DNA from: Alphaproteobacteria bacterium
GTDB lineage: Bacteria > Pseudomonadota > Alphaproteobacteria > MPNO01 > UBA830
Assembly: GCA_965243135.1 (NCBI GenBank)
Contig: OZ251539.1
Span: forward strand, 32,001-96,000
DNA: 64,000 bases
Direction: 5' to 3'
Shown: piece by piece, positions 9,883 through 31,304 of the stretch
How the letters are laid out: each line of letters opens with the position of its first letter
Numbering within the stretch: position 1 is the first letter of the stretch
Made by a program: the position numbers and the translations under genes
The notes under the pieces: generated by a model
What the model was told of the DNA's origin: nothing
Seen by the model: only the letters and a program-made list of their open reading frames with translations
Databases searched by the model: none

Positions 9883-9888
9883 TCGAAG

Positions 9889-9917: not shown

Positions 9918-10047
9918 GAAGTCGGCGGCGGCAGGCGCGTCCCCTGGCGCGGCAAGCAGCCGGCAGTTTTCGCAGCGGTACGGCGGGGAAAAGCGCGGGG
10001 GCGAGCGAACCTGTCGCTCCGCGGAAGCCCGCCCGCAGTAGGCGACC

Positions 10048-10300
10048 ATGGTTGCAAGCACGTTCGACGCGCTCAACGCGCGGCCAGGAGGCCGCGGGCG
10101 GAAGCGAACGCCGACGGCCGGCGCCGCCAGCAAAGGCGACGCGAGTCGACAACGACGCCGGCTTCGCGAGCCTCGACGGCAAGGTCGACGTCCTCGCCGC
10201 GGAAACCAGGGCCGGCGCAACGCGACGGCAAGCGCTCTCCACCGCTTCGCCATGGCTCAACACCACGGTGCGACACCTCCTTCCTCAGTTCCTGTCGCTG
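10048..10300 (+). pseudogene. Possible decayed DUF1640/CCDC90-like coiled-coil protein
   Basis: Fragments MVASTFDALNAR / ...AGFASLDGKVDVLAAETRAG in different frames resemble the 'FDTL..ARRL...ATKADL' family. Frameshifted. Confidence 0.3.
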
Positions 10301-10748
10301 TTCCGTCCGCCGCCACCTCCTTGGTCTGGAAGCGTTCCAAGAGATCATTTGGTACATGGACCGGACATATCATCTGTTACTGACACGGACTCCGCCTTCT
10401 CCTTGAGCCGCGTGCGCTGTTCGTAACGTCTTGAATTGCGGACAGATTTCCGGGGTGCGGAAATTTTTTACCCCGATTGGGGTACGGAAAACTGCGAATT
10501 CTCCGCGCCGAGGTCGTGATTGTCGCAGATTCCACCCCACGGCCGGCCGGGTGCCGCCCCTGGCCGCCTGCGTTCAGGCTACGGCCCGGCTTGCACCGGG
10601 TTTGCGGCGCGGCAACACTCGCCTTTTGTTCTGAAGACTGAGCACCCGCGAGGCCCTTGCGGGCCGCTGGCGAGCGGGCGGAGCGGTTCGCGGGGTGCCG
10701 GCCGGGCGGCAGGCCGACAAAAAAATGGCACAGCGCAAACGGCTTTCC

Positions 10749-10777
10749 TTGACGGCTCCGGCATGGCGGCCTACCCT
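10749..10777 (+). promoter_or_regulatory. Putative sigma70 promoter (TTGACG-N17-TACCCT), leaderless arrangement
   Basis: TTGACG 10749-10754, TACCCT 10772-10777, ATG at 10784. Confidence 0.6.
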
Positions 10778-10783
10778 CTTCGA

Positions 10784-12316: not shown

Positions 12317-12492
12317 AGCCGGGAGCCGTCCCGTCCGTACCTTTCGGACGGCGGCGCCTCCGCAAAAGGCGCCGGTAGACCGCGTCGCCGAGAGGAGGCG
12401 CATGAACCTCGGCCCGGCGTTCGGCCGGCGGACTTCGCGCCTTGACGGGCGATAATTTTCCGCTTAAACAGGCGCCGTTCGAGAGGAATCCG

Positions 12493-12753
12493 ATGGCCAA
12501 CACGACATCCGCGAAGAAACGGGCGCGCCGCGACGCCCGCAAGGTTCGAGTGAACGGCGCCCGCAGGGCGCGAGTCCGTACCTTCGTCAAGAAGGTCGAG
12601 GCGGCGATAGCGGCTGGCGACCGCGAGGCGGCCGGCGAGGCTCTCAGAAAGGCGCAACCCGAGCTGATGCGCGGCGTGACGCGCGGCGTGGTCAAGAAAA
12701 ACATGGCCGCCAGGAAAATCTCCAGGCTGTCCCGGCGCATCAAGGCGCTGTAG
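12493..12753 (+). CDS. rpsT: 30S ribosomal protein S20
   Basis: [13 protein letters not shown]...[12 protein letters not shown]...[17 protein letters not shown] upstream and a TTGACG -35 at 12442. Confidence 0.97.
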
Positions 12754-12902
12754 CCGGCCTTTCCGACCCGCAGGCGGAATGACGCCTGCGCGACGCTCCC
12801 AACCCGATTTTGTCCTGCGGACGCGCTGCGCGGTTCCGGCGGCGGGCCGTTCGCGCTTTCGCCGCGGGTTCTCGCCGAGCCTCTCTTCGTCGAGTCCGAT
12901 AG

Positions 12903-12911
12903 TTTTCCACA
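12903..12911 (+). promoter_or_regulatory. DnaA box (TTTTCCACA) in AT-rich rpsT-dnaA intergenic region
   Basis: Exact match to TTWTNCACA, flanked by GANTC sites at 12892 and 12916. The region 12900-13200 is markedly AT-rich. Confidence 0.55.
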
Positions 12912-13206
12912 AAACGAATCGAATAGTGGCTTGTCAAGTAAATAAGTTTATCCGCCGCTAAAAATTTTTCGTCATTTGGCCCTCGAAACCCGTTGTACCG
13001 GGTTGCCGGTATGGTTACGCTTCAGGCTTCGAAGGCAGGGCGTTCAAGTATTGACGGCCCGGTTTCCAACTAATTCGCAGGTGTTCCATGTAAAAACGGG
13101 CAAACTTCAGTTTTTCTTGTTAATGTTCCGTTGCATTCGGGAAAAAATGAAGCAATGTCTAGGCATATATGACACTTTACCTTCAACCGAGTTACGGGAA
13201 TTACTT

Positions 13207-13668
13207 ATGGAACAGTCATCTTTACTTGGAAATGGAGCGCAACGACGGGCGGACGGTTACGCTGGCGACATAAGCGCCGCTCATGCTTGGGAAAGGCTTC
13301 GCTCCGATCCGGGCGCAGTTCTCGTGGACGTGCGAACCCGTGCCGAGTGGACTTTCGTCGGCGTTCCGGACCTGTCCGAGCTTGGCAAGAAGGTCGTTTT
13401 CGCGGAATGGCAATCGTATCCGTCGATGGACGCCAATCCGGCGTTCGTCGAAGAGGTGAGCGCGGCGGCGCCCGACCGGCAGGCGCCGCTTTATTTGCTC
13501 TGCCGGTCGGGCGCCCGCTCCAGAGCGGCGGCGGTCGCGTTGACCAGGGCCGGCCATGCGGAGTGCTACAACGTCAGCGGCGGTTTCGAGGGGCCGCATG
13601 ATGAGCGGAAACGCCGGGGCGTCACGGACGGGTGGAAGGCTTGCCGCCTCCCCTGGGTTCAGGGGTGA
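13207..13668 (+). CDS. Single-domain rhodanese-like protein
   Basis: YAGDIS, LVDVRTRAEW, active-site loop LCRSGARS, GGFEG and GWK...LPW motifs. Start uncertain. Confidence 0.88.
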   Translation: MEQSSLLGNGAQRRADGYAGDISAAHAWERLRSDPGAVLVDVRTRAEWTFVGVPDLSELGKKVVFAEWQSYPSMDANPAFVEEVSAAAPDRQAPLYLLCRSGARSRAAAVALTRAGHAECYNVSGGFEGPHDERKRRGVTDGWKACRLPWVQG

Positions 13669-13674
13669 TCGGCG

Positions 13675-15000
13675 ATGGATAAGGACGTTCAGGCGGGATG
13701 GGCGCGCGTTCGGGGATTGCTGCGCGCGAGCGTCGGGGAATCGACCTACAGGAACTGGCTGAAGCCCCTGACGCTGGTGGAATGCGTCAACGGCACGGTC
13801 AGGCTGTCGTTGCCGACGAGGTTCATGCGGGACTGGGTCAACAATCACTTCGGCGAACGGTTGAACGATCTGTGGATCGACGACGCCGCGCCGGTGTCGG
13901 CGGTCGAGATATTCGTTCTCGCCGGCAACGAGAAGGCGAGGGTCGCCGAGCCGCGCGTCCCGGAGGCCGCCGACGCCGGCCTGAGACTCGACCGGAAGTA
14001 CAAGTTCGAGAATTTCGTGGTCGGCAAGCCGAACGAGTTCGCCTACGCGGCCGCCCGCCGCGTCTCGGATTCGCCTGCCGCCAACTACAATCCGCTTTTC
14101 CTTTATGGCGCGTCCGGGCTCGGCAAGACGCATTTGATGCACGCCATCGCATGGCAAATCCACACGCAGCGTCCCGGCGATTCCGTCGTCATCCTTTCCG
14201 CCGAACGGTTCATGGAGCAGTTCGTCCGCGCCCTGAAGGCGAAGGAGATCATGGCGTTCAAGGAACGCTTCCGATCGGTCGACGTGCTGATGATCGACGA
14301 CGTGCATTTCATCGGAGGCAAGGAAGCCACCCAGGAGGAATTTTTCCATACCTTCAACGATCTGATGAGCAACGGGCGGCAGGTCGTGGTCTCGGCCGGC
14401 AAGCCGCCTTCCTCTCTGGAAGGAGTCGAGGAGCGGCTGCGCTCGAGGTTCGGATGCGGCCTCGTCGCGGACATCGCCGCCACGACGTACGATCTGCGCC
14501 TCAGAATCCTCCAGGCCAAGGCGGAAGCGGCGAAGCTCGACGTGTCCGGGAAGGTGCTGGAATTTCTCGCCCACGAGATCACCGCCAGCGTGCGGGAGCT
14601 CGAGGGAGCCCTGAACCGCGTCGCGGCGCAAAAGGAACTGGTCGGTCGCGACATCACCCTCGACAACTGCCGGGAGCTCCTGCGCGATCTGTTGCGGCCG
14701 AGCGAGCGGCGGGTCACCATCGAGGAGATCCAGAAACGGGTGGCCGCGCATTTCAACATCAGGATTGCGGACATGCATTCGGCGCGCCGGTCCCGGGCGA
14801 TCGCCCGCCCGAGGCAGGTCGCCATGTACCTTTCGAAACAGCTTACGACCCGTTCGCTGCCGGATATCGGCCGCAAGTTCGGCGGCCGCGACCACACCAC
14901 GGTCATTCACGCCGTGAGGAAAATCGAGGAACTGCGCGCCGGCGACGAAACTTTCGCCGAGGACGTCGATTTTCTGCGAAGAATGCTGGAGGGGGATTGA
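13675..15000 (+). CDS. dnaA: Chromosomal replication initiator DnaA
   Basis: YNPLFLYGASGLGKTHL, IDDVHF, EEFFHTFN, RELEGAL and RDHTTVIHA motifs. Confidence 0.99.
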   Translation: MDKDVQAGWARVRGLLRASVGESTYRNWLKPLTLVECVNGTVRLSLPTRFMRDWVNNHFGERLNDLWIDDAAPVSAVEIFVLAGNEKARVAEPRVPEAADAGLRLDRKYKFENFVVGKPNEFAYAAARRVSDSPAANYNPLFLYGASGLGKTHLMHAIAWQIHTQRPGDSVVILSAERFMEQFVRALKAKEIMAFKERFRSVDVLMIDDVHFIGGKEATQEEFFHTFNDLMSNGRQVVVSAGKPPSSLEGVEERLRSRFGCGLVADIAATTYDLRLRILQAKAEAAKLDVSGKVLEFLAHEITASVRELEGALNRVAAQKELVGRDITLDNCRELLRDLLRPSERRVTIEEIQKRVAAHFNIRIADMHSARRSRAIARPRQVAMYLSKQLTTRSLPDIGRKFGGRDHTTVIHAVRKIEELRAGDETFAEDVDFLRRMLEGD

Positions 15001-15154
15001 CGGCGAAGGCGCGGCCGCTTGCGCCGCGTTCCGCGAGCCCTCTGCGCCGCAAGGCGCACCCGGATGATTCGGCGATTCCGCTCCTTACTCGTAACTCGCT
15101 GATAACGCTTGCTTTTCGGTGACGCGACATGCGTTGCGGCGGAGACTGCTTTTC

Positions 15155-15182
15155 TTGAAAATTCAATCACTTGTGATATAAT
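15155..15182 (+). promoter_or_regulatory. Putative sigma70 promoter for dnaN (TTGAAA-N16-TATAAT)
   Basis: Near-consensus -35 and perfect -10 about 90 nt upstream of the dnaN ATG. Confidence 0.55.
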
Positions 15183-15270
15183 CTCCCGCCTTGCGGGCAA
15201 CGTCGCGGCCGTGCCGTTCGGCTCGTTCGCGCGCCGCAGGGTCCGCAACCAACCGAGCTGGCCGGAAATC

Positions 15271-16389
15271 ATGCAACTTACAATCGAGCGCAACACCCTT
15301 CTGAGCTCCCTGACGCACATCCAGAGCCTCGTCGAACGCCGCACGACCATACCGGTCTTGTCCAACGTTCTCCTGAAGGTGGAGGAAGGCAGGCTTCGCC
15401 TCAACGCCACGGACATGGACCTGTCGCTCGTGCAGGGAGTCGGCGCGGATATCGTACAGGAGGGCGCGACCACGGTTCCCGCCCATACCCTTTACGACAT
15501 CGTCCGCAAGCTGGCCGAGGGGGCGCAAGTGGAGATCGACACCGGCGGCGAGGAGGGCAAGCTCGATATCAAGTCGGGCCGGTCGAAGCTGAGCCTCAAG
15601 ACGCTGCCGAGCGAGGACTTCCCGGTCGTGGCGGAAGGGGATTTTCCGCATGCGTTCAGCCTGTCCGCCCAGACGCTTCGCCGTCTGATCGACCGGACGC
15701 GCTTCGCCATGTCCGTCGAGGAGACCCGCTATTACCTCAACGGACTTTATTTCCACGCCGTCGAAGCGGAGGGGAAGCCGGTTTTCCGCGTCGTCGCGAC
15801 CGACGGGCACCGTCTCGCCCGGGTCGAGATACCCATGCCCGACCGGGCGGCGGAAATTCCGGGCGTGATCGTGCCCCGCAAGACGGTGAACGAGGTCAGG
15901 AAGCTGATCGAGGACGCGGAGGACGAAATCGAGATCGCCCTGTCCGATTCGAGGATCCGCTTCGCTTTCGGCGACGTCTCGCTGACCTCCAAGTTGATCG
16001 ACGGAACTTTCCCCGACTACAACCGGGTCATTCCCTTCGGCAACGACAAGACGCTCGAGGTGGAGCGCGCCGAGTTCGTCATGGCGGTGGACCTCGTTTC
16101 GACGATTTCGACCGACAAGTCCCGGGGCGTGAAACTGGCCCTCGATTCGGGAAACCTCGTGCTTTCCGCCACCAGTCCGGAGTCCGGCAGCGCGCAGGAA
16201 GAACTCGACGTCGAATACCAGCACGGAAAGCTCGAAATCGGCTTCAACTCCCGCTATCTCCTCGACATAGCGCAGCAGATCGAAGGCGACCGCGCCAGTT
16301 TCCATCTCGCCGACGGAAATTCGCCGACGCTTATCCGGGAAGTGGGCGACGAGGGCGCATTGTACGTGCTGATGCCCATGCGCGTCTGA
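15271..16389 (+). CDS. dnaN: DNA polymerase III beta clamp
   Basis: MQLTIER, ETRYYLNG, ATDGHRLA, GTFPDY, GFNSRY and C-terminal LMPMRV. Confidence 0.99.
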   Translation: MQLTIERNTLLSSLTHIQSLVERRTTIPVLSNVLLKVEEGRLRLNATDMDLSLVQGVGADIVQEGATTVPAHTLYDIVRKLAEGAQVEIDTGGEEGKLDIKSGRSKLSLKTLPSEDFPVVAEGDFPHAFSLSAQTLRRLIDRTRFAMSVEETRYYLNGLYFHAVEAEGKPVFRVVATDGHRLARVEIPMPDRAAEIPGVIVPRKTVNEVRKLIEDAEDEIEIALSDSRIRFAFGDVSLTSKLIDGTFPDYNRVIPFGNDKTLEVERAEFVMAVDLVSTISTDKSRGVKLALDSGNLVLSATSPESGSAQEELDVEYQHGKLEIGFNSRYLLDIAQQIEGDRASFHLADGNSPTLIREVGDEGALYVLMPMRV

Positions 16390-16391
16390 CC

Positions 16392-20004
<3,613 letters not shown>

Positions 20005-20022
20005 TTCGACGCGGCCCTCGCG

Positions 20023-20505
20023 TCAGGCGGCGAGCTCCGCGATTCGGTCGAATTCCGGACCGAAGGCCGCGCACACGATCACGTTTCGGAGTTCCGGAAC
20101 GAACTTGCGATAGAAGCGCCGCGCCGCTCGGTTGCGCCTGACGACGGACCAGAACATCCAGCGGGCGCCCTCGGCGCGGGTTTTGCGCGCGAGGCCCGAA
20201 ACGAGGGCGCGTCCTCCTCCGCGGCGGCGGTAGTTCGCGTCGACGAAGAGGTCGGAGAGATAGACGCCGCGAGTCGCGCTGTCGGTGTCGTAGCCCCAGT
20301 AATAGAGGGCGTAGCCGCGCGGCGCGCCCTCGATCTCGGCGATCAGCGCGCGAAAGGCGGGATCTTCGCCGAAGCCGTCTTCCAGATAGGACCGCGCCGT
20401 GAACTTCGACGGGGGCGCGTCGGTTTGGAGGGATTTCGCCATTTCGGCGACCGCGGCGGCGTCTTCCCGGACTGCGGGACGAACGAGGATTCCGGGACCG
20501 ATCAT
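20023..20505 (-). CDS. GNAT family N-acetyltransferase
   Basis: YLSDLFVDANYRRRGGGRAL acetyl-CoA motif and NRAARRFY. ATG at 20505. Confidence 0.85.
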   Translation of the reverse strand: MIGPGILVRPAVREDAAAVAEMAKSLQTDAPPSKFTARSYLEDGFGEDPAFRALIAEIEGAPRGYALYYWGYDTDSATRGVYLSDLFVDANYRRRGGGRALVSGLARKTRAEGARWMFWSVVRRNRAARRFYRKFVPELRNVIVCAAFGPEFDRIAELAA

Positions 20506-20570
20506 TTCGAGACGCTCCTGAGCGTGAATGCAGGGTTGATTTTCTGGGGGACAATACTGCATATAGCGGC

Positions 20571-22505
20571 ATGGTGGAAAAAAAGCACAAATCGGGAAAG
20601 AAATCCGGGAACGCGAAAGGGACTCGCCGAGCCGCTCCGAGGAAGGCCGCCGCCGGGGCGAAGGGGCCTGCGCGAACCGCGGCGAAAAAGAGCCCCCGCG
20701 GCGCAACCGTCCGCAAGGCGAGGAAGCGCCGCGCGAGAAACTGGTCGCGAGGCGCTCGCGTCGCGGGGTTGACGCTCCGCTGGTTTCTGATCTTCATGGT
20801 CTGGATCGGAGTCGCGGTTTCAGCGGTCGTGGCCTGGTACGCGTACGATCTTCCCGACATAGACAATCTCAAGGTTCCCGAGCGCCGGGCGAGCCTCACC
20901 CTGACCGATGCGGGGGGGCGGTCGATCGCGGTCTACGGCGACCTCTACGCCGGGTCGCTTCAACTGAAGAACATGCCCGCTCATCTGAAGCAGGCGATTC
21001 TCGCCACCGAGGACCGGCGCTTCTTCGAACACGGCGGCTTCGACCCGTTCGCCCTCGCCCGCGCCCTCGCCGTCAACCTGTACGCGGGCCGCATTCGTCA
21101 GGGCGGCAGCACCCTGACCCAGCAACTGGCGAAGAACATCTTTCTGAAGCCCGATCGCACGGTGCGCCGAAAGGTGCAGGAGCTGCTCCTGACCTTCTGG
21201 CTCGAGGCGAACTTCACGAAGGAGCAGATATTCACCCTGTACGTCAACCGCGTCTATCTCGGCTCGGGAGCCTACGGTTTCGAGGCGGCGTCCCGGCGCT
21301 ATTTCGGCAAGTCGGCGCGCCGCGCGACCCTGCTTCAGGCCGCCGTTCTGGCGGGGCTTCTAAAGGCGCCGTCCCGCTATTCGCCGCTGCGCGATCCGGA
21401 AGCCGCCCGGAAACGCGCCGGCACGGTGCTGAAAGCCATGGTCGACGCCGGCTTCATCGACGGCGCGGCGAGGAAGCGCGCCCTGCGCCAAAAGCTGAAC
21501 GTGGTCGCCATCGCCGGCGTCGGCAGGCATTTTTCCGACTGGGTTCTGGAAAGGGTCGCCGGGTTCGTCCGCCGCGACGGCCAGGACCTGATCGTGCGGA
21601 CGACGCTCGACCTGAGATTGCAACGTCTCGCGGAGGCCCGGCTGCGGGCGACGATCGCGAAAAACGGGAAGGCGGGGAACGTCCGTCAGGGCGCGCTGGT
21701 CGCGCTGTCCCACGACGGCGCCGTGCGGGCGATGGTCGGCGGCAGGGACTATTCGGCGAGCCAGTTCAACCGCGCCAGTCAGGCGCTCCGGCAGCCTGGC
21801 TCCGCCTTCAAGCTGTTTGTCTATCTGGCGGCCCTCGAAAGCGGGCTGGCGCCCGACGACATATTCGCCGACCGACCGTTCCGCATCGGAAAATGGCAGC
21901 CGCGCAATCACGAAAAAACGTATCGCGGCGACATCGACATGCGCGAGGCGATGGCGCACTCGATCAACACCGTCGCCGTGAGGATATCGGAGAGGGTGGG
22001 GCGGCGGAAGGTCATCGAAGCCGCGCGGCGGCTCGGCGTTACGTCGCCGATCAGAGCGCATCCCAGTCTCGCGCTGGGCGCGAGCGAGGTGACGCTGCTC
22101 GAACTGACGGGAGCTTATTGCGTGATCGCCAATGGCGGGATCGCCGCGTGGCCTCACGGAATCGCGGAAATCCGCCGCAGCGACGGCACCGTGCTCTACC
22201 GGAGGAAGCGCGGCGAAGGGAGCCGGGTGGTGTCGCGCGGCGTCGCCCGGGATATGCGCGAGCTTTTGCGCGGGGTCGTCGCGGACGGAACCGGCAAGGC
22301 CGCGAATCCCGGCTGGACGGCGGCCGGCAAGACCGGGACCAGCCAGGGCTTCCGGGACGCCTGGTTCGTCGGCTACGCCGGCGATCTCGTCACCGGCGTA
22401 TGGATGGGGAACGACAAAGGCGCCCGCATGAAGGGCGTAACCGGCGGCCAATTGCCGGCGCGTCTGTGGCGGGATTTCATGACGGCGGCTCTCGGAGGAT
22501 CGTAG
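20571..22505 (+). CDS. Class A penicillin-binding protein (PBP1A family)
   Basis: TM anchor; EDRRFFEH, GGSTLTQQL, RKVQE (transglycosylase); SAFK, SIN, KTGT (transpeptidase). Confidence 0.95.
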   Translation: MVEKKHKSGKKSGNAKGTRRAAPRKAAAGAKGPARTAAKKSPRGATVRKARKRRARNWSRGARVAGLTLRWFLIFMVWIGVAVSAVVAWYAYDLPDIDNLKVPERRASLTLTDAGGRSIAVYGDLYAGSLQLKNMPAHLKQAILATEDRRFFEHGGFDPFALARALAVNLYAGRIRQGGSTLTQQLAKNIFLKPDRTVRRKVQELLLTFWLEANFTKEQIFTLYVNRVYLGSGAYGFEAASRRYFGKSARRATLLQAAVLAGLLKAPSRYSPLRDPEAARKRAGTVLKAMVDAGFIDGAARKRALRQKLNVVAIAGVGRHFSDWVLERVAGFVRRDGQDLIVRTTLDLRLQRLAEARLRATIAKNGKAGNVRQGALVALSHDGAVRAMVGGRDYSASQFNRASQALRQPGSAFKLFVYLAALESGLAPDDIFADRPFRIGKWQPRNHEKTYRGDIDMREAMAHSINTVAVRISERVGRRKVIEAARRLGVTSPIRAHPSLALGASEVTLLELTGAYCVIANGGIAAWPHGIAEIRRSDGTVLYRRKRGEGSRVVSRGVARDMRELLRGVVADGTGKAANPGWTAAGKTGTSQGFRDAWFVGYAGDLVTGVWMGNDKGARMKGVTGGQLPARLWRDFMTAALGGS

Positions 22506-22636
22506 CCGGGCGGGAGGGACGGTTGCCGAATCGCCGCCCCCGCAGAGTCCCGGCGGCCGTCCGGACGCCGGTTCGGCGGCCCGGAGGCGGCTTCGGTTCG
22601 CGCGAAAACCTTCGCGCGCGGATTGCCCACGACGGC

Positions 22637-22681
22637 TTGACTTCGATTCGCCGCGACAATATCTTTGTTCACGGAAAGTTC
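22637..22681 (+). promoter_or_regulatory. Sigma70 promoter (TTGACT-N17-TATCTT) with overlapping alphaproteobacterial LexA box GTTC-N7-GTTC
   Basis: -35 at 22637-22642, -10 at 22660-22665, GTTCacggaaaGTTC at 22667-22681 across the expected TSS. Confidence 0.75.
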
Positions 22682-22736
22682 GTCCGTCGAGCGGCAAGCG
22701 GCCGCTAATCCCGTCGCCACAGAAGGAAGACGCGGA

Positions 22737-23456
22737 ATGCAGGTTACGGTAGACCGCCAGGAAAGGGAAATCCGGCGCGGGTTGGTCAGTGCAAGCGAAC
22801 TTTACGATCTTGCCGATTGCGGCGAGGAGAGGCTTTTCTTGCATATTGGCGATGACGAGAAGATACCGCTTCTTCCCATGGATCACATGGTCATTCGGGG
22901 CGGCGAAGCCTTCGTTACCGGCGGAGTCGAAATCCAGGACGATGCGCCGTTGAAAAATGCGATTTGCCCGCGTTTCAATGGCGAGCCCGGTCCGGCTCTG
23001 CAGACGGCGAAAATAACGGGAGCGGCTCTGAAGGCGTTGGACAACGAGTTCCCGCGCGGACGCCTGTTCGTCGATGTCCAAGGCGACGTCGACGCGGAGA
23101 TTGTCGACGACATGATGATCGTCGTCCAAAGCGCGGATTCGTTTTTCGTGATTCCCGATGGCGACGACGGCGCGATCGATATCGAAAGCTGCGGCAAGCA
23201 TGATCGTCAGCCTCCGAAAGGGTACCGCTATCGAATCCGGATCGACGGGGAAAAGTACGTCGTGCAATCCGGCAGGATATCGGGCGCGGAAATACTGGAC
23301 ATGGCCGGCAAGAATCCTGACGAATGGTCGCTGAACCAGAAACTTCATGGAGGGAAAAGGGTCAGAATCGAAATCCGCGACGCAGTCGACCTTACCTTGA
23401 AGGGAATAGAGAGATTCGAAACGGTACGCCGGCAGGCGCAGCAGGGCCATGAATGA
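22737..23456 (+). CDS. Multi-ubiquitin (tandem beta-grasp) ubiquitin-like protein
   Basis: About three beta-grasp-like repeats. The last reads YRIRIDGEKY...ISGAEILDMAG...VDLTLKGIERFET and the protein ends QAQQG-HE. First gene of the E2/JAB/E1 operon. Confidence 0.85.
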   Translation: MQVTVDRQEREIRRGLVSASELYDLADCGEERLFLHIGDDEKIPLLPMDHMVIRGGEAFVTGGVEIQDDAPLKNAICPRFNGEPGPALQTAKITGAALKALDNEFPRGRLFVDVQGDVDAEIVDDMMIVVQSADSFFVIPDGDDGAIDIESCGKHDRQPPKGYRYRIRIDGEKYVVQSGRISGAEILDMAGKNPDEWSLNQKLHGGKRVRIEIRDAVDLTLKGIERFETVRRQAQQGHE

Positions 23457-23838
23457 TCCTTTCGAACTGCTTCCGGAAGATGCAGAGTATCTGGACGCGA
23501 ATCATCCCGGAAAATGGCGGAAGGTGAGCGAGGGAAACGGAAAATTCGGTTTGCTTATCGAAGAATTTGCCGTTCCGAAGGGATATCGTCCAGAGAATTC
23601 CTGCCTGATGATTCTGGTTCCGGCAGGCTATCCGGCATCGCCTCTCGACATGTTCTATTTCGACCCCCCGCTCGGGAATGCCGACGGCGCCGCACTCGCC
23701 GCGATCGCTTTCGAGGAGCATTTCCGGAGACGATGGCAAAGATGGTCGCGCCATTATCAATGGAACCCGGGAGAGGACAATCTGGCAAGCCATGTCGAGT
23801 ACGTCCTTAACGAGCTTCGGACGCGAGCGCTGCAATGA
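23449..23838 (+). CDS. Prokaryotic E2/UBC-fold protein (Prok-E2 family E-like)
   Basis: LPEDAEYL, VPKGY, VPAGYPASPLDMFYFDPPL and WQRWSRH motifs; overlaps both neighbours. Confidence 0.85.
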   Translation: MNDPFELLPEDAEYLDANHPGKWRKVSEGNGKFGLLIEEFAVPKGYRPENSCLMILVPAGYPASPLDMFYFDPPLGNADGAALAAIAFEEHFRRRWQRWSRHYQWNPGEDNLASHVEYVLNELRTRALQ

Positions 23839-25226
23839 GACGCCCGATCCTGGCAATGACGAAAACCATGCATAAGACGGTTTTCGATTATCTGTTTCCG
23901 GGAGACGGGCTTGAGGCGGCTGGCGTTCTGCTTTGCAATCAAGGAACGGGTAAGCGTTGCCAGCGGCTTCTTGCTGCGGAATTTCTGCATTTGCCTCATA
24001 ATCTGTCGGAAAGAAGACCGGATTTCGTTTCCTGGCCTTTCAGCGAGCACATGACGCCGGATCGGATCGGAGAGGCGGACCGAAAGGGTCAAACGATCAT
24101 CGCCATTCATTCGCACCCGAAGGGCGGCGGTCATTTTTCGGAGATTGACGACAAGAACGATCTGGAGCTGCTCAAATCGATAAATGGATGGTTTGACGAT
24201 GAGCGGACGAACGGAGTCGCGGTCATGACGCCGGACGGGGCGATTGCCGCCAGAACGATGGGTGAAGATCGAGGTTTCAGGAATGTCGAGGCAGTCTCGG
24301 CAGTAGGAAGCAGCATTCGAATATGGAAGTCCCGTCGGGAAGATCAGCATACTGCGTATGAAGCGAAGATGTCGCAGACCTTCGGGCAGGGAACCCTCGA
24401 ACTTCTGAAGTCGATGAGAATCGGAGTCGTTGGATGTTCGGGAACCGGCAGCATCGTGATCGAATTGCTGGCGCGAAACTGCGTGGGGGAACTTGTCATT
24501 GTCGACGACGACGTTCTGGAAGAAAAGAATCTCAATCGCGTTGTTGGCGGCACGATGAAGGATGCGCGCGCAGGGCGTCCGAAGGCGGCCGCGATACGGG
24601 ACGCTATCGGCGAGACGGGACTCGAAACTCGAGTCGAAGCGTATCGCGGCGTTACCGATTCGCCGGAGGTGATTTCGGCGTTGATCGATTGCGACGCGAT
24701 TTTCGGATGCGTCGATTCCGCGTTCGGCAGGTATCACCTGGACTGTCTGGCCAGCGCCTATCTGATTCCGTATTTCGACGTCGGCGTCCACATCGAGGCT
24801 GACGGAACCGGCGGGATCCGGGCGGCCGACGCCGTTGCGCACTATGTGCATCCGGACGGGCTCAGCCTGATCTCGAGAGGCGCCTATACGATGGAACAGG
24901 TCGCGGCCGAAGACTGGAGAAGGACCGATCCGGCGCACTATCGGAGACAGCGCATGGCGGGGTATCTGGCCGAAGTGGGCGAAGAACAGCCTGCGGTCAT
25001 GTCGGTCAACATGCAGGCGGCGTGCATGGCGTTCAACGACTTCATGGCGCGCATTCACGCCTTCCGGCTGGACGGCAATCACGAGTTCGGAACGCAAAGG
25101 TTCAGACTGGTGCACGGTTGCTATGAAAACGAGGCCGACGCCGGAGCTCCGCATCCGCTTCTCGGACGTTATGCAGGGACCGGGGACGGCAGCCTTCTGG
25201 TTCGGAACAATACCCGTCGTGATTAG
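23835..25226 (+). CDS. JAB peptidase-ThiF/E1 fusion protein
   Basis: N-terminal JAMM motif E...HSHx7SxxD (HSHPKGGGHFSEID). ThiF domain has VVGCSGTGS, DDDVLEEKNLNR, FGCVDS and PYFDVG. Confidence 0.9.
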   Translation: MRRPILAMTKTMHKTVFDYLFPGDGLEAAGVLLCNQGTGKRCQRLLAAEFLHLPHNLSERRPDFVSWPFSEHMTPDRIGEADRKGQTIIAIHSHPKGGGHFSEIDDKNDLELLKSINGWFDDERTNGVAVMTPDGAIAARTMGEDRGFRNVEAVSAVGSSIRIWKSRREDQHTAYEAKMSQTFGQGTLELLKSMRIGVVGCSGTGSIVIELLARNCVGELVIVDDDVLEEKNLNRVVGGTMKDARAGRPKAAAIRDAIGETGLETRVEAYRGVTDSPEVISALIDCDAIFGCVDSAFGRYHLDCLASAYLIPYFDVGVHIEADGTGGIRAADAVAHYVHPDGLSLISRGAYTMEQVAAEDWRRTDPAHYRRQRMAGYLAEVGEEQPAVMSVNMQAACMAFNDFMARIHAFRLDGNHEFGTQRFRLVHGCYENEADAGAPHPLLGRYAGTGDGSLLVRNNTRRD

Positions 25227-25584
25227 GTGGCTGTTCAACGCGATGGCGTTCCTGCATCCCTACGGAACCGAATGGGTGGAAAATCCGCCCGAGGAAATCC
25301 GGCGAAATACGGTGTATGTCGTCGGCGGCCGCGAACATCCATTCCAAGCCGGGGTCGCGTGCCCGCGAAAGAGGTGCAAGCACGTCATTTACCTGGATAT
25401 CGCGCCGGAGATAACCCGACGTTGGTCTCTGACGGAACACGATGACGGGCGCGTTTCGCTGTCTCCGTCGGTGCATGTGACAAGATTGCCTTGCAGATGC
25501 CACTACTGGATAAAACGAGGACGCATATGTTGGAGCGAAACGCCGCGTTTGCGCGTGCCGAAGGAGAATACAAGTGATCCGTAG
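25219..25584 (+). CDS. DUF6527-like Cys/His-rich (metal-binding) protein
   Basis: ACPRKRCKHVIYL...WSL...VSLSPSVH...CRCHYWIKRGRICW. GTG start overlaps the E1 stop. Confidence 0.8.
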   Translation: MIRWLFNAMAFLHPYGTEWVENPPEEIRRNTVYVVGGREHPFQAGVACPRKRCKHVIYLDIAPEITRRWSLTEHDDGRVSLSPSVHVTRLPCRCHYWIKRGRICWSETPRLRVPKENTSDP

Positions 25585-25672
25585 GATAATCATTGAGAAT
25601 TTCAAGAAGTTCGGTCGGCTGGAGTGCGACGACATTCCGGATAATTGCATCATTGTTGGCCCCAACAATTCC
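25574..25672 (+). pseudogene. 5' fragment (33 codons) of ABC-ATPase/TOPRIM (OLD-like) nuclease gene, interrupted by IS66
   Basis: AAGGAG SD, GTG start, MIRRIIIENFKKFGRLE...IIVGPNNS. Joins in frame to GKTT at 28475 after removing the IS and one target-site duplication (TSD) copy. Confidence 0.9.
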
Positions 25673-25923
25673 GTAAGCGTTCGGTCGTGGGGTGGCGACG
25701 TTGAGGCCTGCCTCCAGGCAGGGGCTTCAACCAGACGTCCTTGACCGGGAGGGCGCGTTCGTTTCGGGTACTGCCGCGGCCTACGCCGCCCCTCTGGTTG
25801 GCACCCGGCAACAGGTTTCTCGCGAAGTCCCGGAGAGTAAGCGTTCGGTTGCGAAGCGGGCTGTCGAGCCAGGCGAATCGCCCAGGCCTGGACACTCTTC
25901 TTTTGTTCTTGTATACGGCTGCC

Positions 25924-27570
25924 ATGGCGGTCGAATCTGCACGCACGCTTTCCGGGACCGAGCTGTCGGGCGACGGCCAAGCTCTGGCTGCGGCATGCCG
26001 AGCGAATGCGGCTCTCTGCCAGGCGCTGGAAAGCGCACTCGATAAAGCGGAGAAGTTTCGCCGCGACGCCGAGAGGTGGCAGGGAGCTTTCCACCGGGCG
26101 ATGGCGCTGATTAGAATCCTGAAAAAGAGACGCGAGGCGCCGCCCCGAGAGACGGCAGAGAACGAGAGTCTGAAGTCCCGCAGCCGCAGGTTTGCCCGGG
26201 AGTTGTTCGGGCGCCGCAGCGAGCGGCAGCCTACGGCAACCGGTCGACGCCGGGGGCGCAGTCAGGGAACGCCGTCGCACGGCCGCACGCCGCACCCCGA
26301 GCTGCCCGTTCGCGAGGAGGAGTCGCTTCCGGACGAGCGCACGTGTCCGGACTGCGGCAAGGCCTGGGTCTCGAACGGTTGGAAGGACACGGATCTCATC
26401 GAGACCAGGACCGTCACCTATGTCCGGAGGATTCGACGGAAGCGGCTGCGCCCGACCTGTACCTGCCGACCGGAAAAGGAGGCCGTCGGCCCGGCTCCGG
26501 CGCGGCTGTTTCCGAACACTCGGTACGGAGTTTCCGTCTGGGCGTACGTCCTGGCGGAGAGGTACGGCCTGCACCGTCCGTTGCGCTCGGTCTGCCGCGC
26601 GCTGGGTCAGCACGGGCTTGCCATTGCGCCCGGCACGTTGGCGGACGCTCAGCGGGGATTCCTGCGACTGTTCGAGCCGCTCGACGATGAGATCTCCCGG
26701 CGCCTGTCGGAGGCGCCGGTCGTTCACGGCGACGAAACAGGGTGGTGGATACGGGAGTTGGGCGAAGAAGACGGCGGCAACGCTCGCGCCTGGGCATGGA
26801 TCGCCCGGTCGGCGGACGCGGTTCGCATCGTTATTCTGCCGTCGCGCAGCGCGGAAGCCGCCCTTGAACTGTTCAGGGGGCTCGGCTCGCCCGAACAGGC
26901 GGCTCACCTGGTCTGCGACCGCTACTCCGCCTACCGGAAGCTGGCGCGCGTCATGGAAGGGTGCATCGTCCTTTCATATTGTTGGGTCCATGCCAGACGG
27001 GACTTCATCAACCTTGAGACCGGCTACCCGAACCTCGCGAAGTTCGCCCAAAAATGGCTTCGTCACATTGCGGCATTGTACCGACTCAACGCCAGGCGTC
27101 TGGCGTGTCCGGGCAACGCCGCCGCCCAGCGGCGGCTCGCGAGATTCGCCGGAGCGTTCTTCGCGGCGGCGAAAAAGGCACGGGACGCGCTTCCGGAGAG
27201 CGCGGCGCAACGCGGCCCTCTGGACTCCCTGCTACGCCACCGCGACGGCCTGACAGTGTTCGTCGACAACGCAGACGTTCCCATGGACAACAACCCCGCC
27301 GAACGCGGCCTGCGCGGCCTCGCGATCGGCCGGAAGCTCTCGTTCGGGTCGCATAGCGTGGACGGAGCGCAGTTGGCGGGCATGCTCTATTCCATCTTCG
27401 GCACGCTCGAGATGGCCGGCGTCTCGCCGTACCGCTGGCTACTCGGTTATCTCGATGCCTGCGCCCGGCATCGCGGTCCGCCGCCCGAAGGCCCTGCTGC
27501 CTGGCTGCCGTGGGGCGCAGGCGAGGAGCGTCTCCGCTCCTGGCGTCCCGCTCTCCCCCAAGGACCGTGA
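25924..27570 (+). CDS. IS66 family DDE transposase (TnpC-like)
   Basis: LFGRRSE, CPDCG zinc finger, HGDETGW, VCDRYSAY, CWVHARR and DNNPAERGLR motifs. Confidence 0.95.
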   Translation: MAVESARTLSGTELSGDGQALAAACRANAALCQALESALDKAEKFRRDAERWQGAFHRAMALIRILKKRREAPPRETAENESLKSRSRRFARELFGRRSERQPTATGRRRGRSQGTPSHGRTPHPELPVREEESLPDERTCPDCGKAWVSNGWKDTDLIETRTVTYVRRIRRKRLRPTCTCRPEKEAVGPAPARLFPNTRYGVSVWAYVLAERYGLHRPLRSVCRALGQHGLAIAPGTLADAQRGFLRLFEPLDDEISRRLSEAPVVHGDETGWWIRELGEEDGGNARAWAWIARSADAVRIVILPSRSAEAALELFRGLGSPEQAAHLVCDRYSAYRKLARVMEGCIVLSYCWVHARRDFINLETGYPNLAKFAQKWLRHIAALYRLNARRLACPGNAAAQRRLARFAGAFFAAAKKARDALPESAAQRGPLDSLLRHRDGLTVFVDNADVPMDNNPAERGLRGLAIGRKLSFGSHSVDGAQLAGMLYSIFGTLEMAGVSPYRWLLGYLDACARHRGPPPEGPAAWLPWGAGEERLRSWRPALPQGP

Positions 27571-28439
27571 GCGGCAGCCCCCGCCGCTACTGCGGGCGCG
27601 ACTTCTCCGAGGACGAGGTCGACATGATCCGCGGCCTGATCGCGAGGGGCGGCCTCCACCGCCGGGCGCTGTCGCGGGAGGTCTGCCGCCGCCTCGACTG
27701 GCGCAAGCCCGACGGCGGCCTAAAGGATATGAGCGCGCGCGTCGCCATGTTGCGCATGCATCGCGACGGCGTGATCGTCTTGCCGCCGCCAAGGCGCGCG
27801 CCGGTCGTCCGCCGTCCGCTCGTGCCCGGTCCCGCGACCGACAGGCCCCCGTTCCCGACCCCCGAGCGTCTCGCCGATATCCAACCCGTCGCCGTTGAGC
27901 CCGTCCGGAACGCGGGCGAAGGCCGCCTCTGGAACGAGTTCGTCGCTCGCTACCACTATCTCGGCTATTCGACGCTGCCCGGCGCGCAGATGCGATACTT
28001 CGTTCGGGCCGCCGGAGGCGAACCCCTCGCCGTCCTCGGCTTCGGCGCCGCGGCCTGGAAGATCGCGCCGCGGGACAAGCTTGTCGGGTGGGATCCCGAG
28101 ACCCGCCGCCGCAACCTGCCTCTCGTGGTCAACAATGCAAGGTTCCTGATCTTGCCGTGGGTCCGGATCAAAAACCTCGCGTCCTGCATCCTTGCCATGG
28201 TTGAATGTCGCCTGCCCGACGATTGGGAAGGCCGCTACGCGTTGCGCCCGGCCCTGATGGAGACCTTCTGCGAGAGCACGCGCTTCGAAGGAACCTGCTA
28301 CCGGGCCGCCAACTGGACCAAGGTCGGCAAAACGCAGGGCCGCGGCAAGCTCGATACCCGGAAAGAACGCGCTCTCCCGGTCAAGGACATCTGGCTGAAA
28401 CCCCTGCGCCGGGACTGGAGGCGGCTCCTCAATGAATAG
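27567..28439 (+). CDS. DUF4338 (DruA-like) domain protein, IS passenger
   Basis: WNEFVARYHYLG, RDKLVGW, VVNNARFLILPWV, ETF, GTCYRAANW and TQGRGK motifs. GTGA overlap with the transposase stop. Confidence 0.88.
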   Translation: MSGSPRRYCGRDFSEDEVDMIRGLIARGGLHRRALSREVCRRLDWRKPDGGLKDMSARVAMLRMHRDGVIVLPPPRRAPVVRRPLVPGPATDRPPFPTPERLADIQPVAVEPVRNAGEGRLWNEFVARYHYLGYSTLPGAQMRYFVRAAGGEPLAVLGFGAAAWKIAPRDKLVGWDPETRRRNLPLVVNNARFLILPWVRIKNLASCILAMVECRLPDDWEGRYALRPALMETFCESTRFEGTCYRAANWTKVGKTQGRGKLDTRKERALPVKDIWLKPLRRDWRRLLNE

Positions 28440-28474
28440 GCCATCACCCCACGACCGAACGCTTACACAATTCC

Positions 28475-29998
28475 GGAAAGACCACCCTGCTGCAGGCGAT
28501 CGCCGCATGGTCGGAAATCGGATATTTGTGGCGCAACTCCTCTCCCGATTTGACGCGAGACGATTCTGGAAAGTATCACTTTTTGAAACTTGATCTGGCG
28601 AATTTTGGAACCATCTCGTCGCCAAATTTTTCCGAAATTTGGAAAGATAAAGAAGTTTCAAATCCGGCTTCCGTGTCCATTGAAACGGAAAGCTGGACCG
28701 TGGGATTCGAATTCGTCTATGAAGAACTCGGGACCGCTTCCATAAGGCCGAATTCGGACGTCAAAGAAGACGATCTGGAAAAATATCTGCATGAACCTTT
28801 CTCGGTCGGGTATATCTCCGCGCTGTCGAGTATGGACGCAAAAGAATCGATATATGGTCGCGAGGTTGTTTCGTCCCGTCTCGCACGCGGCCGAGGCGGC
28901 GAGGTAATCAGAAACATGTTGCGTACAGTCTACGAACACGACAATAAATGGAACAGTTTGCAGGCGACGATCAGAGATCTGTTCGGCTATGAAATTCAGC
29001 CGCCAAGCGGCGCGGATCCAATCTTCGCCGGTTATCGGCACTCGAAAGGCGGTGTATGGCACGATCTTTCGAGCGCAGCTAGCGGGTTTCTCCAGATCCT
29101 GATGGCTCATGCGGCGCTTTTGTACGAGGAATCTGATATTTTGTTGTTCGACGAACCCGATACCCACCTGCATAATTTATTGGAAGAAAGAATATACCAC
29201 AGTCTTAAGGATCATGCCAAGGGACGTCAGCTAATCATAGCGACGCATTCAAGACAGTTGATCGACGCAGCAGTTCGGGAGAATTCCGACCGCTTATTGA
29301 TCGTCACTTCCGAGGGATTGAAGAAGATCAAGAAGCAGGATGCGAATGAAATTAACAGAAGAGAAACGATCGAAATAGTAAACGCAGAAACGGAACGCGC
29401 CGTTCTGTATCTTGAAGGGCAAACGGATCTCAATATTTTGAAGGGATGGGCCAACGTTCTAGATCATTCATCGCGGCAACTTCTTGAAGCTCCTTTTTTT
29501 GTAGCAACGGCAGGGAAAGCGAACAAGCAGGCATTTTCCAAAAAGCACTTTGGTTCTCTGAAAGCTATAGTTCCAAATCTTCGCGGATTGGAGATACGTG
29601 ACGGAGACGGCAAGGAGCATAGTACGCCTAAGACGCCTCAAGGTTTTGCAATTATGTATTGGAAATGGTACGAGATCGAGAATTATTTGATTCACCCTGA
29701 ATCGCTCCTTCGCTATATTAGGGATGAAATTGGAATAGCAGAGAAAAGAGCTGCGGAAGAATATATGACAAAGAATCTTCCTCAAAGTAAATTTGAAAAA
29801 CCGTTTGATGACAGTTTTGTAGACAAGACAAAGGGAAAAGATATAATCAAAGATATTTTTGATAAGGCAAATTGCAATTTGCCTGCAACTGAATATTACC
29901 AGATCGCGAAACGGATGAGAGGCGATGAGATTCACCCGGAGGTTAAAGATAAATTAGACAAAATCGCCGATCTGAAGTCAGCCGATCTGAAGTCATAG
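28475..29998 (+). pseudogene. 3' part of ABC-ATPase + TOPRIM (OLD-like) ATP-dependent nuclease
   Basis: GKTT (end of Walker A), SGFLQ signature, LLFDEPDTHLH, ATHS, TOPRIM LEGQTD...RDGD and EIENY. Visibly lower GC. Reconstructed protein is about 540 aa. Confidence 0.88.
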
Positions 29999-30294
29999 GA
30001 CGAGAGCTACAGTATCGGCCATGCTAGGTCGGTCCTAACTGGACGGTATCTTCAACGCCTGCGCCGTCTGAGAACCCATGGAGCGTGCGTCGGCAGCCCC
30101 GGCTCCCTTCGCTCTGCGTAATTCAGGAGGCGCAGCCGAGGCGCGGCGCGCTTGCGGAGAAAGTTCGTTTCGTCGCCGGACGTTCGGCGGGGAGTGCGCG
30201 CCGCTGCGGTTTCGCCGGTCATGCGGGAAGCGATCCGCCAGATCCGGCGGTGCCAAGCGAAGTTGCGAGCGGATTTTTCGGCGGAACCTCCCGT

Positions 30295-30729
30295 CTATTC
30301 CGGCCAGGAAACGATCCTGTCTTCGGGATCGATTCTTCGAGACTCTCGAACCACCTTGCCCCGAACCGAGATCCCGGCGCGATGGACCGTTTCGGGGTCG
30401 CCGGAAACCAGCGGGTGCCACCAGAACAACTCCTTTCCTTCGGCGACCAGCCGATAGGCGCAGGTCGAAGGCAGCCATCCGCCGCTTCGCGCGAGTTCCG
30501 GAGTTATCCGGACGCAATCGGGCACGCGGTCGTTGCGGTTGCGGTAGTCGCCGCATCTGCAACTGTCCCGGTCGAGCAACCTGCAGGCGACGTCGGTGTA
30601 CGCGACCTCGCCCGTATGGACGTCTTCCAGCTTGAGCAGGCAGCACCGTGCGCACCCGTCGCACAGCGATTCCCATTCGTCGCCGCTCATCTCCTCGAGC
30701 CGTTTCCTGGTCCAGAAGGGATCGGTCAA
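30295..30729 (-). CDS. YcgN (UPF0260) cysteine-cluster protein
   Basis: [19 protein letters not shown]...WLPSTCAYR...WHPLVSG. Confidence 0.9.
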
Positions 30730-31304
30730 CCGCGGACGTGCTCCCTGAGCTTCTCGGCGAGGCGTTCGGGCGCGGTCGCGTGCGTGAAATGCGTGACGTA
30801 GCCGCCCTTCGGATCCATGAGGAAAATGATCGACGAATGATCCACAAGGTAGTCGTCGCCGCTTCCTTCGCCTTTGCCGTAATAGACCCGGTAGGCCCGC
30901 GCCGCGGACGCGATCTGCTTGTCCGAACCCGTCAGGGCCACCATGCGCGGGTGGAAGTTCTCGACATAGGTCGCGAGATGCTCCGGCGTGTCGCGTTCCG
31001 GATCGACGGTGATGAAGATCGGCGTGACCCTGTCCTGACGCGGCTTTTCGAGCTGGTTCATCGCCGCGGTTATGACCTGGAGCGCGGTCGGGCAGATGTC
31101 GGGACAGTACGTGTATCCGAAATACACCAGCATGTAGCTGCCGCGATAGTCCGCGTCGGTGCGCGGCCGGCTTTCGTGATCGACCAGCGCGAACGGCCCG
31201 CCGACCAGCGCCGACCCTTTGCCGCCGCCGTAGAGGCCGTAGGCCGCGAGCGCGGCGAGGACGATGCCCGTCGCGGCGATCAAGACGACCTGATACTTGC
31301 GCAT
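30726..31304 (-). CDS. SCO1/SenC family copper chaperone
   Basis: [19 protein letters not shown] and VDHSS motifs; N-terminal TM segment. Confidence 0.93.

Follow-up and report, generated by a model that had tools for sequence, protein, structure and literature searches.

A mobile five-gene cassette pairing a Type I Bub operon with a predicted, translationally coupled OLD-family nuclease gene

Bacterial '6e/DUF6527' operons have been renamed Bub, and a preprint (bioRxiv 10.1101/2024.11.21.623953) lays out the chemistry of the proteins that they encode. The JAB peptidase of BubCD trims BubA, a ubiquitin-like protein (Ubl) whose Type I forms contain one, two or three beta-grasp domains and end, once BubC has acted, in an exposed Gly. 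The E1 domain of BubCD adenylates BubA and binds it through a Tyr, BubB accepts it on a Ser for transfer to the lysines of targets, and BubE (DUF6527), a Ser/His protease with a C4 zinc site, strips the conjugates. Here we describe a Bub operon in a 64,000-nucleotide stretch of DNA from an Alphaproteobacteria bacterium (assembly GCA_965243135.1, contig OZ251539.1, positions 32,001 to 96,000; hereafter the window), in which a fifth gene, for a predicted ATPase-TOPRIM nuclease of the OLD family, begins within the last Bub gene.

Two other groups of systems bear on this arrangement. According to the OLD literature, OLD classes are set by gene context (helicase, retron, split PARIS), OLD Class 1 and fused AriAB proteins are single-gene systems, and one class, Cran1, serves the cell cycle rather than defence. 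In CBASS, as recounted in the Bub preprints, conjugation primes a signalling enzyme and Cap3 reverses it. The Bub (6e) operon of the window is of a kind already known. Its pairing with an OLD gene, as the fifth gene of a Bub cassette, appears to be new, and the cassette is nuclease-dead in this genome. Overall, the sequence comparisons below identify the locus as a mobile five-gene cassette, made up of a Type I Bub operon and an OLD-family nuclease gene that is predicted to be translationally coupled to it.

Five overlapping genes and their co-inheritance

In the open reading frame (ORF) list, read together with Pfam matches, five co-oriented plus-strand genes occupy positions 22737-29998: bubA, bubB, bubCD, bubE and an ABC-ATPase/TOPRIM gene (Table 1). 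The preliminary description of the window, drawn from the letters and ORFs, had placed five such genes here, and all five are present with overlapping starts, each of genes 2-5 beginning within the gene before it. The overlap of bubA with bubB is 8 nt and that of bubB with bubCD is 4 nt (ATGA). BubE homologues are 114-140 residues long and start about 17 residues before a conserved TEWVEDLP motif, which makes the GTG at 25219 the probable bubE start. From this codon bubE overlaps bubCD (stop TAG, 25224-25226) by 8 nt, and from the ATG at 25123 by 104 nt. The ATPase gene in turn overlaps bubE by 11 nt (GTGATCCGTAG), with an AAGGAG 7 nt 5' of GTG 25574, so that the start codon and Shine-Dalgarno sequence had been correctly assigned to the interior of the DUF6527 gene. 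No plus-strand terminator-like site was seen between 22737 and 25672.

We used an alignment of BubCD homologues against contigs from one genome per species, which gave 173 relatives; the best 80 were kept and examined (L001-L080). A BubCD tree of the window and 78 of these loci (L073 and L078 were omitted because of short matches) divides into two clades, each with 99% support in the Shimodaira-Hasegawa-like approximate likelihood-ratio test (SH-aLRT). The window's clade comprises 57 loci from 8 named phyla with BubCD at least 59% identical. The preliminary description had allowed for the outcome that homologous operons never carry this nuclease. Instead, in 55 of the 57 clade loci a profile search detected ATPase sequence immediately following the Bub genes, at full length in 47. 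Where both genes could be placed, the ATPase start codon lies within bubE in 48/49 loci, with an overlap of 11 nt in 18/49 and of 8 nt in 17/49, and a Shine-Dalgarno-like sequence is conserved. Because dozens of other genomes repeat this order and overlap, the arrangement goes beyond chance.

The histories of the two parts also agree. Presence of the ATPase requires three changes on the BubCD tree, a number that none of 500 label shuffles matched. Distances between BubCD proteins track those between ATPases across 46 loci (Mantel r = 0.87; reached by 0/2000 permutations), a correlation to which relatedness alone contributes. In a large protein collection, 29 contigs (identified by the same nucleotide size) are common to the lists of the best 120 BubCD and best 120 ATPase homologues, among them those (346036, 30150 and 10669 nt) that carry the three nearest relatives of both window proteins. 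The flanks of the cassette are unrelated across the clade's phyla, and no flanking gene of the window is common to any of the 80 related loci. Taken together, the 55/57 linkage, the 48/49 overlap and the co-divergence with BubCD bear out the earlier proposal that the Ubl operon includes the ATPase-TOPRIM gene. Within one well-supported BubCD clade, comparison of the loci shows the OLD-like gene to be a near-constant and co-inherited operon member that is predicted to be co-translated; the bond of the nuclease gene with Bub holds for that one clade.

Base composition is consistent with a mobile unit. Between the two flanking genes lies a low-G+C block (41-62%, versus 65-70% in the flanks); by gene, the window has 46% in the ATPase gene, 55-58% in the Bub genes and 66% in the flanks. 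The AT-richness of the nuclease gene had been read as a sign that it may have been recruited separately. The compositional difference is real, but the ATPase gene is below bubCD in G+C in 44/47 loci (median gap 2.9 points; 12 in the window), and its low G+C is therefore better regarded as a trait of the gene family and of the mobile cassette than as a mark of separate recruitment here. Relative to the flanks, G+C is lower in the ATPase gene in 47/47 loci and in BubCD in 41/47. No tRNA genes were found in 15000-36000, and no Rfam families reached the gathering score in 20000-31000.

Several observations on the related loci may be recorded here. All 80 are metagenome-assembled genomes by their record titles, and some candidate genus names allude to sponge hosts. 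Near-identical BubCD proteins occur in different phyla, as in L043 (Dehalococcoidia; end branch 0.017) and L048 (Longimicrobiales; end branch 0.047), which points to recent inter-phylum transfer. Second ATPase-TOPRIM copies lie 5' of bubA in some Longimicrobiales loci. L029 has copies at 7000-8634 and 11421-13055, its bubE is undetected and its downstream copy begins 29 nt after bubCD; the copy in L051 is at 2626-4344.

Table 1. Features of the five-gene cassette, its insertion element and its surroundings (positions in the window).
Feature	Position	Strand	Details
Penicillin-binding-protein gene	20571-22505	+	left flank
Promoter-like site 5' of bubA	22637..22665	+	TTGACT-17-TATCTT, 9/12 matches; consensus match only
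bubA	22737..23456	+	ATG start; 239 aa, multi-ubiquitin Ubl; Pfam Multi_ubiq 4.9e-15
bubB	23449..23838	+	E2-like, Ser/His/Asp site replaces Cys; Pfam Prok-E2_E 1.4e-26
bubCD	23835..25226	+	JAB peptidase-E1 fusion, 463 aa; Pfam Prok-JAB 1.9e-07, ThiF 7e-23
bubE	25219..25584	+	DUF6527; probable start GTG 25219 (121 aa), longest ORF from ATG 25123; Pfam DUF6527 1e-14
OLD-family gene, 5' piece	25574..25672	+	33 codons to GPNNS of Walker A; GTG start within bubE
Target-site duplication, left	25665..25672		8 bp, ACAATTCC
IS66-family element	25673..28466	+	2794 bp; Pfam DDE_Tnp_IS66 2.4e-50, NCBIfam transpos_IS66 7.6e-79
Terminal inverted repeats	25673-25694 and 28445-28466		perfect, 22 nt, beginning GTAAGCG
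Subterminal inverted repeats	25718-25770 and 28355-28407		53 nt
IS66-type transposase gene	25741-27570		TnpC-type, 609 aa
DruA/DUF4338-like ORF	27510-28439		309 aa; Pfam DruA 4.7e-43
Target-site duplication, right	28467..28474		8 bp, ACAATTCC
OLD-family gene, 3' piece	28475..29998	+	507 codons + stop; GKTT of Walker A, signature, Walker B, H-loop
Predicted TOPRIM + helical domain	~29339-29995	+	motifs LYLEGQTD, EIRDGDG, WYEIENYL
CxxCxxCC gene	30295-30729	-	right flank

An intact conjugation module and an interrupted nuclease gene

Sequence comparison identifies genes 1-4 as a Type I Bub (6e) operon. Every published catalytic residue is in place, from which conjugation chemistry is predicted. 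The BubA C-terminus reads ...RRQAQQG-HE, that is, the conserved Gly followed by a two-residue tail, and a (Q/Y)G C-terminus, mostly QAQQG, is kept in 77/77 loci with BubA and BubB matches. The closest PDB sequences are 8u38_A (2.2e-06) and Citrobacter BubA 9ea8_B (0.0048). The element GAAGGAAG lies 5' of the bubA ATG, and an alternative TTG start is found at 22665. BubB matches the solved Citrobacter BubB (9eae_C, 6.5e-18) with its WSRH and LDMFY motifs aligned, and its D67, S100 and H102 align with D299, S333 and H335 as numbered in the preprint. BubCD matches the solved Citrobacter BubCD (9ea4_A, 1e-68) over residues 6-438. Its JAB residues (E27, H92, H94, S102, D105), adenylation Arg (R235) and crossover-loop Tyr (Y377, equivalent to Citrobacter Y370) are invariant among 25 homologues (alignment A1) and line up with E28, D104, R227 and Y370, the positions named in the published account. 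As in other Type I proteins, the E1 domain has no catalytic Cys and would use this Tyr. Models for BubA, BubB and BubE exist in neither PADLOC nor NCBIfam, and the PADLOC E1-E2 models match just the adenylation core of BubCD (best 7e-12).

BubE keeps S84 and H95 together with C48, C53, C92 and C94 of the Cys4 site, each in at least 71 of 73 sequences. DUF6527 had been proposed as an adaptor or E3-like component. This proposal is not supported, as the family has been published in the preprint as a Ser/His deconjugating protease, and the window's BubE keeps the Ser, the His and the four Cys.

In the window bubA and bubB are separate; among 77 related loci the two are split in 56 and fused in 21. 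The preprint has all Type I operons encoding a BubAB fusion (10.1101/2024.11.21.623953). Iyer, Burroughs and Aravind (2006; PMC1779556, Table 1, row 6e) noted both fused and unfused Ubl-E2 forms, and we therefore treat the split as variation within Type I.

The coordinates that the preliminary description gave for the two pieces of the fifth gene (25574-25672 and 28475-29998) prove exact, and intact natural homologues represented the full-length protein in the analysis. The family hidden Markov model covers positions 2-32 on the 5' piece and 31-533 on the 3' piece (684 bits), in a single frame on each, which indicates no decay of the ATPase gene beyond the insertion. On the 3' piece Pfam finds AAA_21 (4.6e-14) as well as AAA_15. 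The best PADLOC model is AriAB (1e-05 for the 5' piece, 9.7e-17 for the 3' piece and 2e-22 for the intact L004 protein), a match that is partial, with 59-78 bits over positions 330-552 of a 694-position model. When a profile of 41 homologues was compared with PDB sequences, the best match was the Thermus scotoductus OLD nuclease 6p74 (1.4e-13), followed by PtuA, GajA and AriA, all via ABC motifs.

Neither a TOPRIM nor a DUF4435 match was obtained from Pfam on the C-terminal half, even at E <= 10, and the TOPRIM domain was for this reason identified by fold. An AlphaFold2 model of P0122, an intact and 82%-identical homologue (predicted local distance difference test, pLDDT, 87.7), matches, over 620-740 alignment columns, GajA, Thermus scotoductus OLD and the retron Eco8 effectors. 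A model of the last 219 residues encoded in the window itself, built with 35 homologues, has a pLDDT of 93. In Foldseek searches with this domain, the sole matches at E <= 0.001 were three entries of the Xanthomonas OLD C-terminal region. Burkholderia OLD followed. The Xanthomonas and Burkholderia OLD C-terminal regions (6njv, 6nk8) were found at probability 1.00 with template modelling (TM) scores of 0.49-0.50, and next came 306-residue chains of PARIS complexes at TM 0.32-0.34. By its modelled fold, then, the fifth protein belongs to the OLD family. With this assignment the domain calls made earlier for all five genes agree with Pfam, the solved Citrobacter chains and the OLD fold matches.

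Alignments of 36-40 sequences, with a mean column identity of 45-51%, show no variation in Walker A, Walker B, the H-loop or five acidic residues of the TOPRIM domain. The ATPase residues concerned are G33, K34, D262, E263 and H296 (alignment A4), and the candidate TOPRIM metal ligands are E26, D30, D88, E112 and E114 (alignment A3). These alignments indicate that the predicted ATPase and TOPRIM active sites are both conserved across the family.

An IS66-family element splits the gene in the window, entering between the codons for GPNNS and GKTT, inside Walker A. Its NCBIfam transpos_IS66 match scores 265 bits against a cutoff of 180, and its terminal inverted repeat has two matches in the window, a count reached in 0/100 shuffles. 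Such termini, together with an 8-bp duplication, are typical of IS66. The element lacks tnpA and tnpB and is present in one copy in the window, and the 3' end of its DruA-like ORF falls within the right subterminal inverted repeat. Relatives of this ORF occur on two plasmid records among transposase genes, one of them annotated as an ISAs1-family transposase. From this structure we conclude that the ATPase gene has been knocked out here by a recent IS66-family insertion, leaving a predicted intact conjugation module beside a dead nuclease gene.

Similar events are seen elsewhere. An IS110-family insertion (12627-14095) interrupts the ATPase gene of L017 and an IS4/5-family insertion (12730-13596) that of L031, so that three independent insertions from three families (IS110, IS4/5 and IS66) interrupt the ATPase-TOPRIM gene in three genomes. 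No insertion sequence was seen inside bubA, bubB, bubCD or bubE in the examined loci. If gene length were the sole factor, all three would fall in the ATPase gene with a probability of about 0.045, which hints at selection to silence a costly nuclease. Considered with the spread across phyla, the recurrence of insertions that disable the nuclease gene suggests a mobile and costly immune cargo.

One system or two

On balance, we lean slightly towards reading the five genes as one system, in which the OLD-like protein would be the effector and the Bub module its control. The cassette would then act in phage defence of the abortive-infection type, with the OLD-like protein cutting nucleic acid. 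In the form of control that we find most likely, BubA would be attached either to the nuclease or to some partner or target that the ATPase domain reads, and this would license cleavage; BubE and BubC would reverse the mark and so keep the nuclease silent in uninfected cells. By analogy with PARIS, the ATPase would hold the TOPRIM nuclease in check until a trigger arrives. That BubA attachment, or the reading of BubA-tagged proteins, switches the OLD enzyme on while the BubE and BubC peptidases switch it off is a tentative proposal, and we consider it rather doubtful in this particular form. A complex prediction for the intact L004 ATPase with BubE scored 0.11 against a mark of 0.32 and weighs neither way.

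One protein bears directly on a link between Ubl and nuclease. In a library of 1.84 billion proteins, P0256 (806 residues; 86,227-nt contig) carries a BubA-type Ubl ending in ...ETVRKQAQQG fused in frame to a full ATPase-TOPRIM protein. P0256 could be a pre-protein processed in the manner of BubAB, or could have arisen by a deletion that removed bubB, bubCD and bubE.

A number of observations weigh against a single system. P0256 is a singleton cluster from one contig, and no further Ubl-OLD fusion was found among the 32 matched proteins. The Bub genes are kept where the ATPase gene is broken or lost: besides the window, it is damaged in seven clade loci, being in two frames in L008 and L021, fragmented in L032, shortened in L051, reduced to a 31-residue remnant in L009 and interrupted in L017 and L031 (that of L043 reaches the contig end). 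The profile search found no ATPase gene in clade loci L014 and L025. Conversely, the ATPase gene is full length in L053 and L073, where bubA and bubB are gone and bubE is interrupted by a stop codon. None of the 23 sister-clade loci has the ATPase gene. Among 72,556 plasmids, 144 records hold BubCD relatives (34-43% identity), and the ATPase has three weak, partial matches there at 25-27% identity; in the three plasmid Bub loci inspected, out of the 144 records, the ATPase gene is absent. The ATPase-TOPRIM family is broad, with 543 representatives at E <= 1e-30 and at least 150 at E <= 1e-72. Since the family extends beyond the Bub-linked clade and OLD Class 1 nucleases need no partner, this protein may function by itself. 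Finally, the Bub preprint reports that none of the Bub operons tested in E. coli protected against phage.

L014, which is also without bubE, has downstream a 972-residue ORF on the minus strand (14671-17589) with a Cas9-like N-terminus by eye.

In an alternative reading, two independent defence systems travel together, a four-gene Bub operon and a single-gene nuclease resembling OLD Class 1 or fused AriAB. In that case the overlap and co-divergence would reflect long co-inheritance and shared transcription in a compact mobile cassette. We regard this as the main competitor, though the less probable of the two readings. OLD Class 1 and fused AriAB are described in the review literature as single-gene systems, and AriAB is the best PADLOC match. 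The 543 representatives place the ATPase family well outside the Bub-linked clade, either module decays while the other is intact, and other Type I Bub operons are without the ATPase gene. The sister-clade Bub genes sit among restriction-modification genes, as is the habit in defence islands. However, island neighbours seldom keep an overlap such as that of the ATPase start within bubE, found in 48/49 loci from 8 phyla, and no other neighbour is conserved across the clade. The Mantel correlation and the three changes of the presence label on the BubCD tree likewise speak against two independent passengers, as does the operonic association of Bub with a different, non-homologous ABC-ATPase and nuclease-like pair in the sister clade.

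That pair lies directly 5' of bubA, on the plus strand, in 14 of the 23 sister-clade loci (L054, L056-L058, L061, L062, L064, L065, L067, L069-L072 and L075). The block, at about 7000-14600, runs on one strand in the order type III methyltransferase, ABC ATPase, PIN-like protein, bubA, bubB, bubCD, bubE, ResIII. The ResIII helicase has about 920-966 residues; in several loci its gene starts at the bubE end or inside it. The block may represent a composite system, or else mod and res genes between which a Bub module has been inserted. The ABC ATPase (C1) matches AAA_15/AAA_21 in Pfam and NsnB in PADLOC (5.5e-50), and is also PDC-M55A-like. When aligned by hhalign with the window-family ATPase, it matches in the signature-to-H-loop region, to which the match is confined (97%). 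The small PIN-like protein (C2, about 181 residues) has a weak Pfam PIN match below the cutoff (6.7e-4) and, by eye, the motifs IAIDTN and TNDRRD; as a TOPRIM relative it was rejected (hhalign probability <1%). To judge from these comparisons, the sister-clade pair would be an analogous, not a homologous, ATPase-nuclease partner of Bub.

Other neighbours of bubA were considered. Neither C12 nor C13, which are conserved 5' of bubA in four Bdellovibrionota loci, matched Pfam or PADLOC, and inspection by eye showed no Walker A in them. An 'ATP-binding protein' 5' of the Bub operon on a Citrobacter koseri plasmid gave no Pfam match, and this lead was dropped.

A further possibility is that the cassette responds to DNA damage or stress rather than to phage, Ubl tagging and an ATP-dependent nuclease then acting on damaged DNA or stalled complexes. 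We give this little credence. In its favour, divergent Peptidase_M78 (CapP-like) and HTH_3 (CapH-like) genes lie 5' of bubA on the minus strand in 11 loci (L001, L002, L005, L008, L010, L013, L018, L019, L022, L028 and L076). They are the only other recurrent neighbours, and the window has no such pair. CapH and CapP accompany 31% of the Bub operons in the Bub preprint, where they are described as DNA-damage responsive. The Bub preprints also leave a stress role open besides finding no phage protection, and within the OLD family Cran1 is placed in the cell cycle rather than in defence. Against a stress response stand the patchy spread over 8 phyla, the G+C content below that of the flanks (BubCD in 41/47 loci, the ATPase gene in 47/47), restriction-modification genes adjoining the cassette in several loci and the repeated insertion-sequence strikes on it. 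Together these features point to accessory defence cargo rather than to housekeeping repair. That the nuclease and Ubl genes became neighbours by a local accident of island assembly, as the 12-point G+C gap in the window might suggest, is hardly credible, given the same order and junction in 55/57 related loci, a G+C gap that is a family trait (44/47 loci) and nearest BubCD and ATPase relatives that share their contigs.

Returning to the single-system reading, its interest lies in the fact that Bub is proven conjugation machinery, and a conserved, coupled nuclease offers a concrete and testable hypothesis for what conjugation controls. For such tests, the clade with the nuclease is a better choice of operon than the three-gene versions. 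If the reading is true, the cassette would be the first effector-coupled Bub system and its nuclease a further context-defined OLD class, for which a Ubl-conjugation partner would be a new context. The sister-clade ABC-ATPase and PIN-like pair would then represent an interchangeable effector module, and P0256 would be processed like BubAB.

Comparison with known systems

We found no paper describing a Bub or 6e operon with an OLD or TOPRIM gene; supplements (Table S1 of the Bub preprint and Dataset EV1 of PMC12796447) may list such loci. The words ATPase, nuclease and effector are absent from the main text of both Bub preprints, one of which is 10.1101/2024.11.21.623953. In PMC1779556 'nuclease' occurs 0 times and the three uses of 'ATPase' concern other systems. 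Ubiquitin goes unmentioned in three OLD-family papers that define the classes.

Type II CBASS (Cap2/Cap3) and Bil are, like Bub, bacterial E1/E2/JAB protein-conjugation systems, and these two are tied to phage defence. The proposed gating of an effector by conjugation is modelled on CBASS. They use thioester E1/E2 chemistry, whereas Bub uses Tyr and Ser oxyesters. CBASS has a cyclic-nucleotide synthase, which the window lacks, and Bil is without a nuclease effector.

Among OLD nucleases, Class 1 (6p74) and Class 2 (GajA; 6njv, 6nk8) give the best sequence and fold matches to the fifth protein, with fold TM scores of about 0.5. Class 2 Gabija has an adjacent UvrD/PcrA-like gajB. In the window, by contrast, the next gene is the minus-strand CxxCxxCC gene, and the clade has no conserved neighbour downstream. 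Class 3 has a reverse transcriptase and a retron non-coding RNA; no reverse transcriptase was found among the window's ORFs or the neighbour clusters, and no Rfam match in 20000-31000. The likeness to PARIS consists in AriAB being the best PADLOC model and in PARIS chains being the next fold matches of the predicted TOPRIM domain. Against it, the AriAB match is weak and partial, the TM scores are 0.32-0.34, there is no DUF4435 match in Pfam and the window's gene lies within a Bub operon. The window is also without split AriA/AriB genes, the partner being a Ubl-conjugation operon.

Closest of all are the Bub operons themselves. The 6e operons of PMC1779556 resemble the window in encoding a polyUbl, a Cys-less E2/RWD-like protein, a JAB-E1 fusion and a small metal-binding protein; they have four components and the window five. 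Type I Bub (6e.1; PDB 9ea4, 9eae and 9eav) has the same four families, with the same JAB residues, adenylation Arg and crossover-loop Tyr. It likewise shares the Ser/His/Asp E2 site, the Ser/His and Cys4 residues of BubE and the conserved Gly of BubA. BubCD is about 35-43% identical to plasmid-borne Type I relatives. Published Type I Bub has a BubAB fusion, whereas bubA and bubB are split in the window; and to the published arrangement of BubAB, BubCD and BubE the window adds an overlapping fifth gene of the OLD family.

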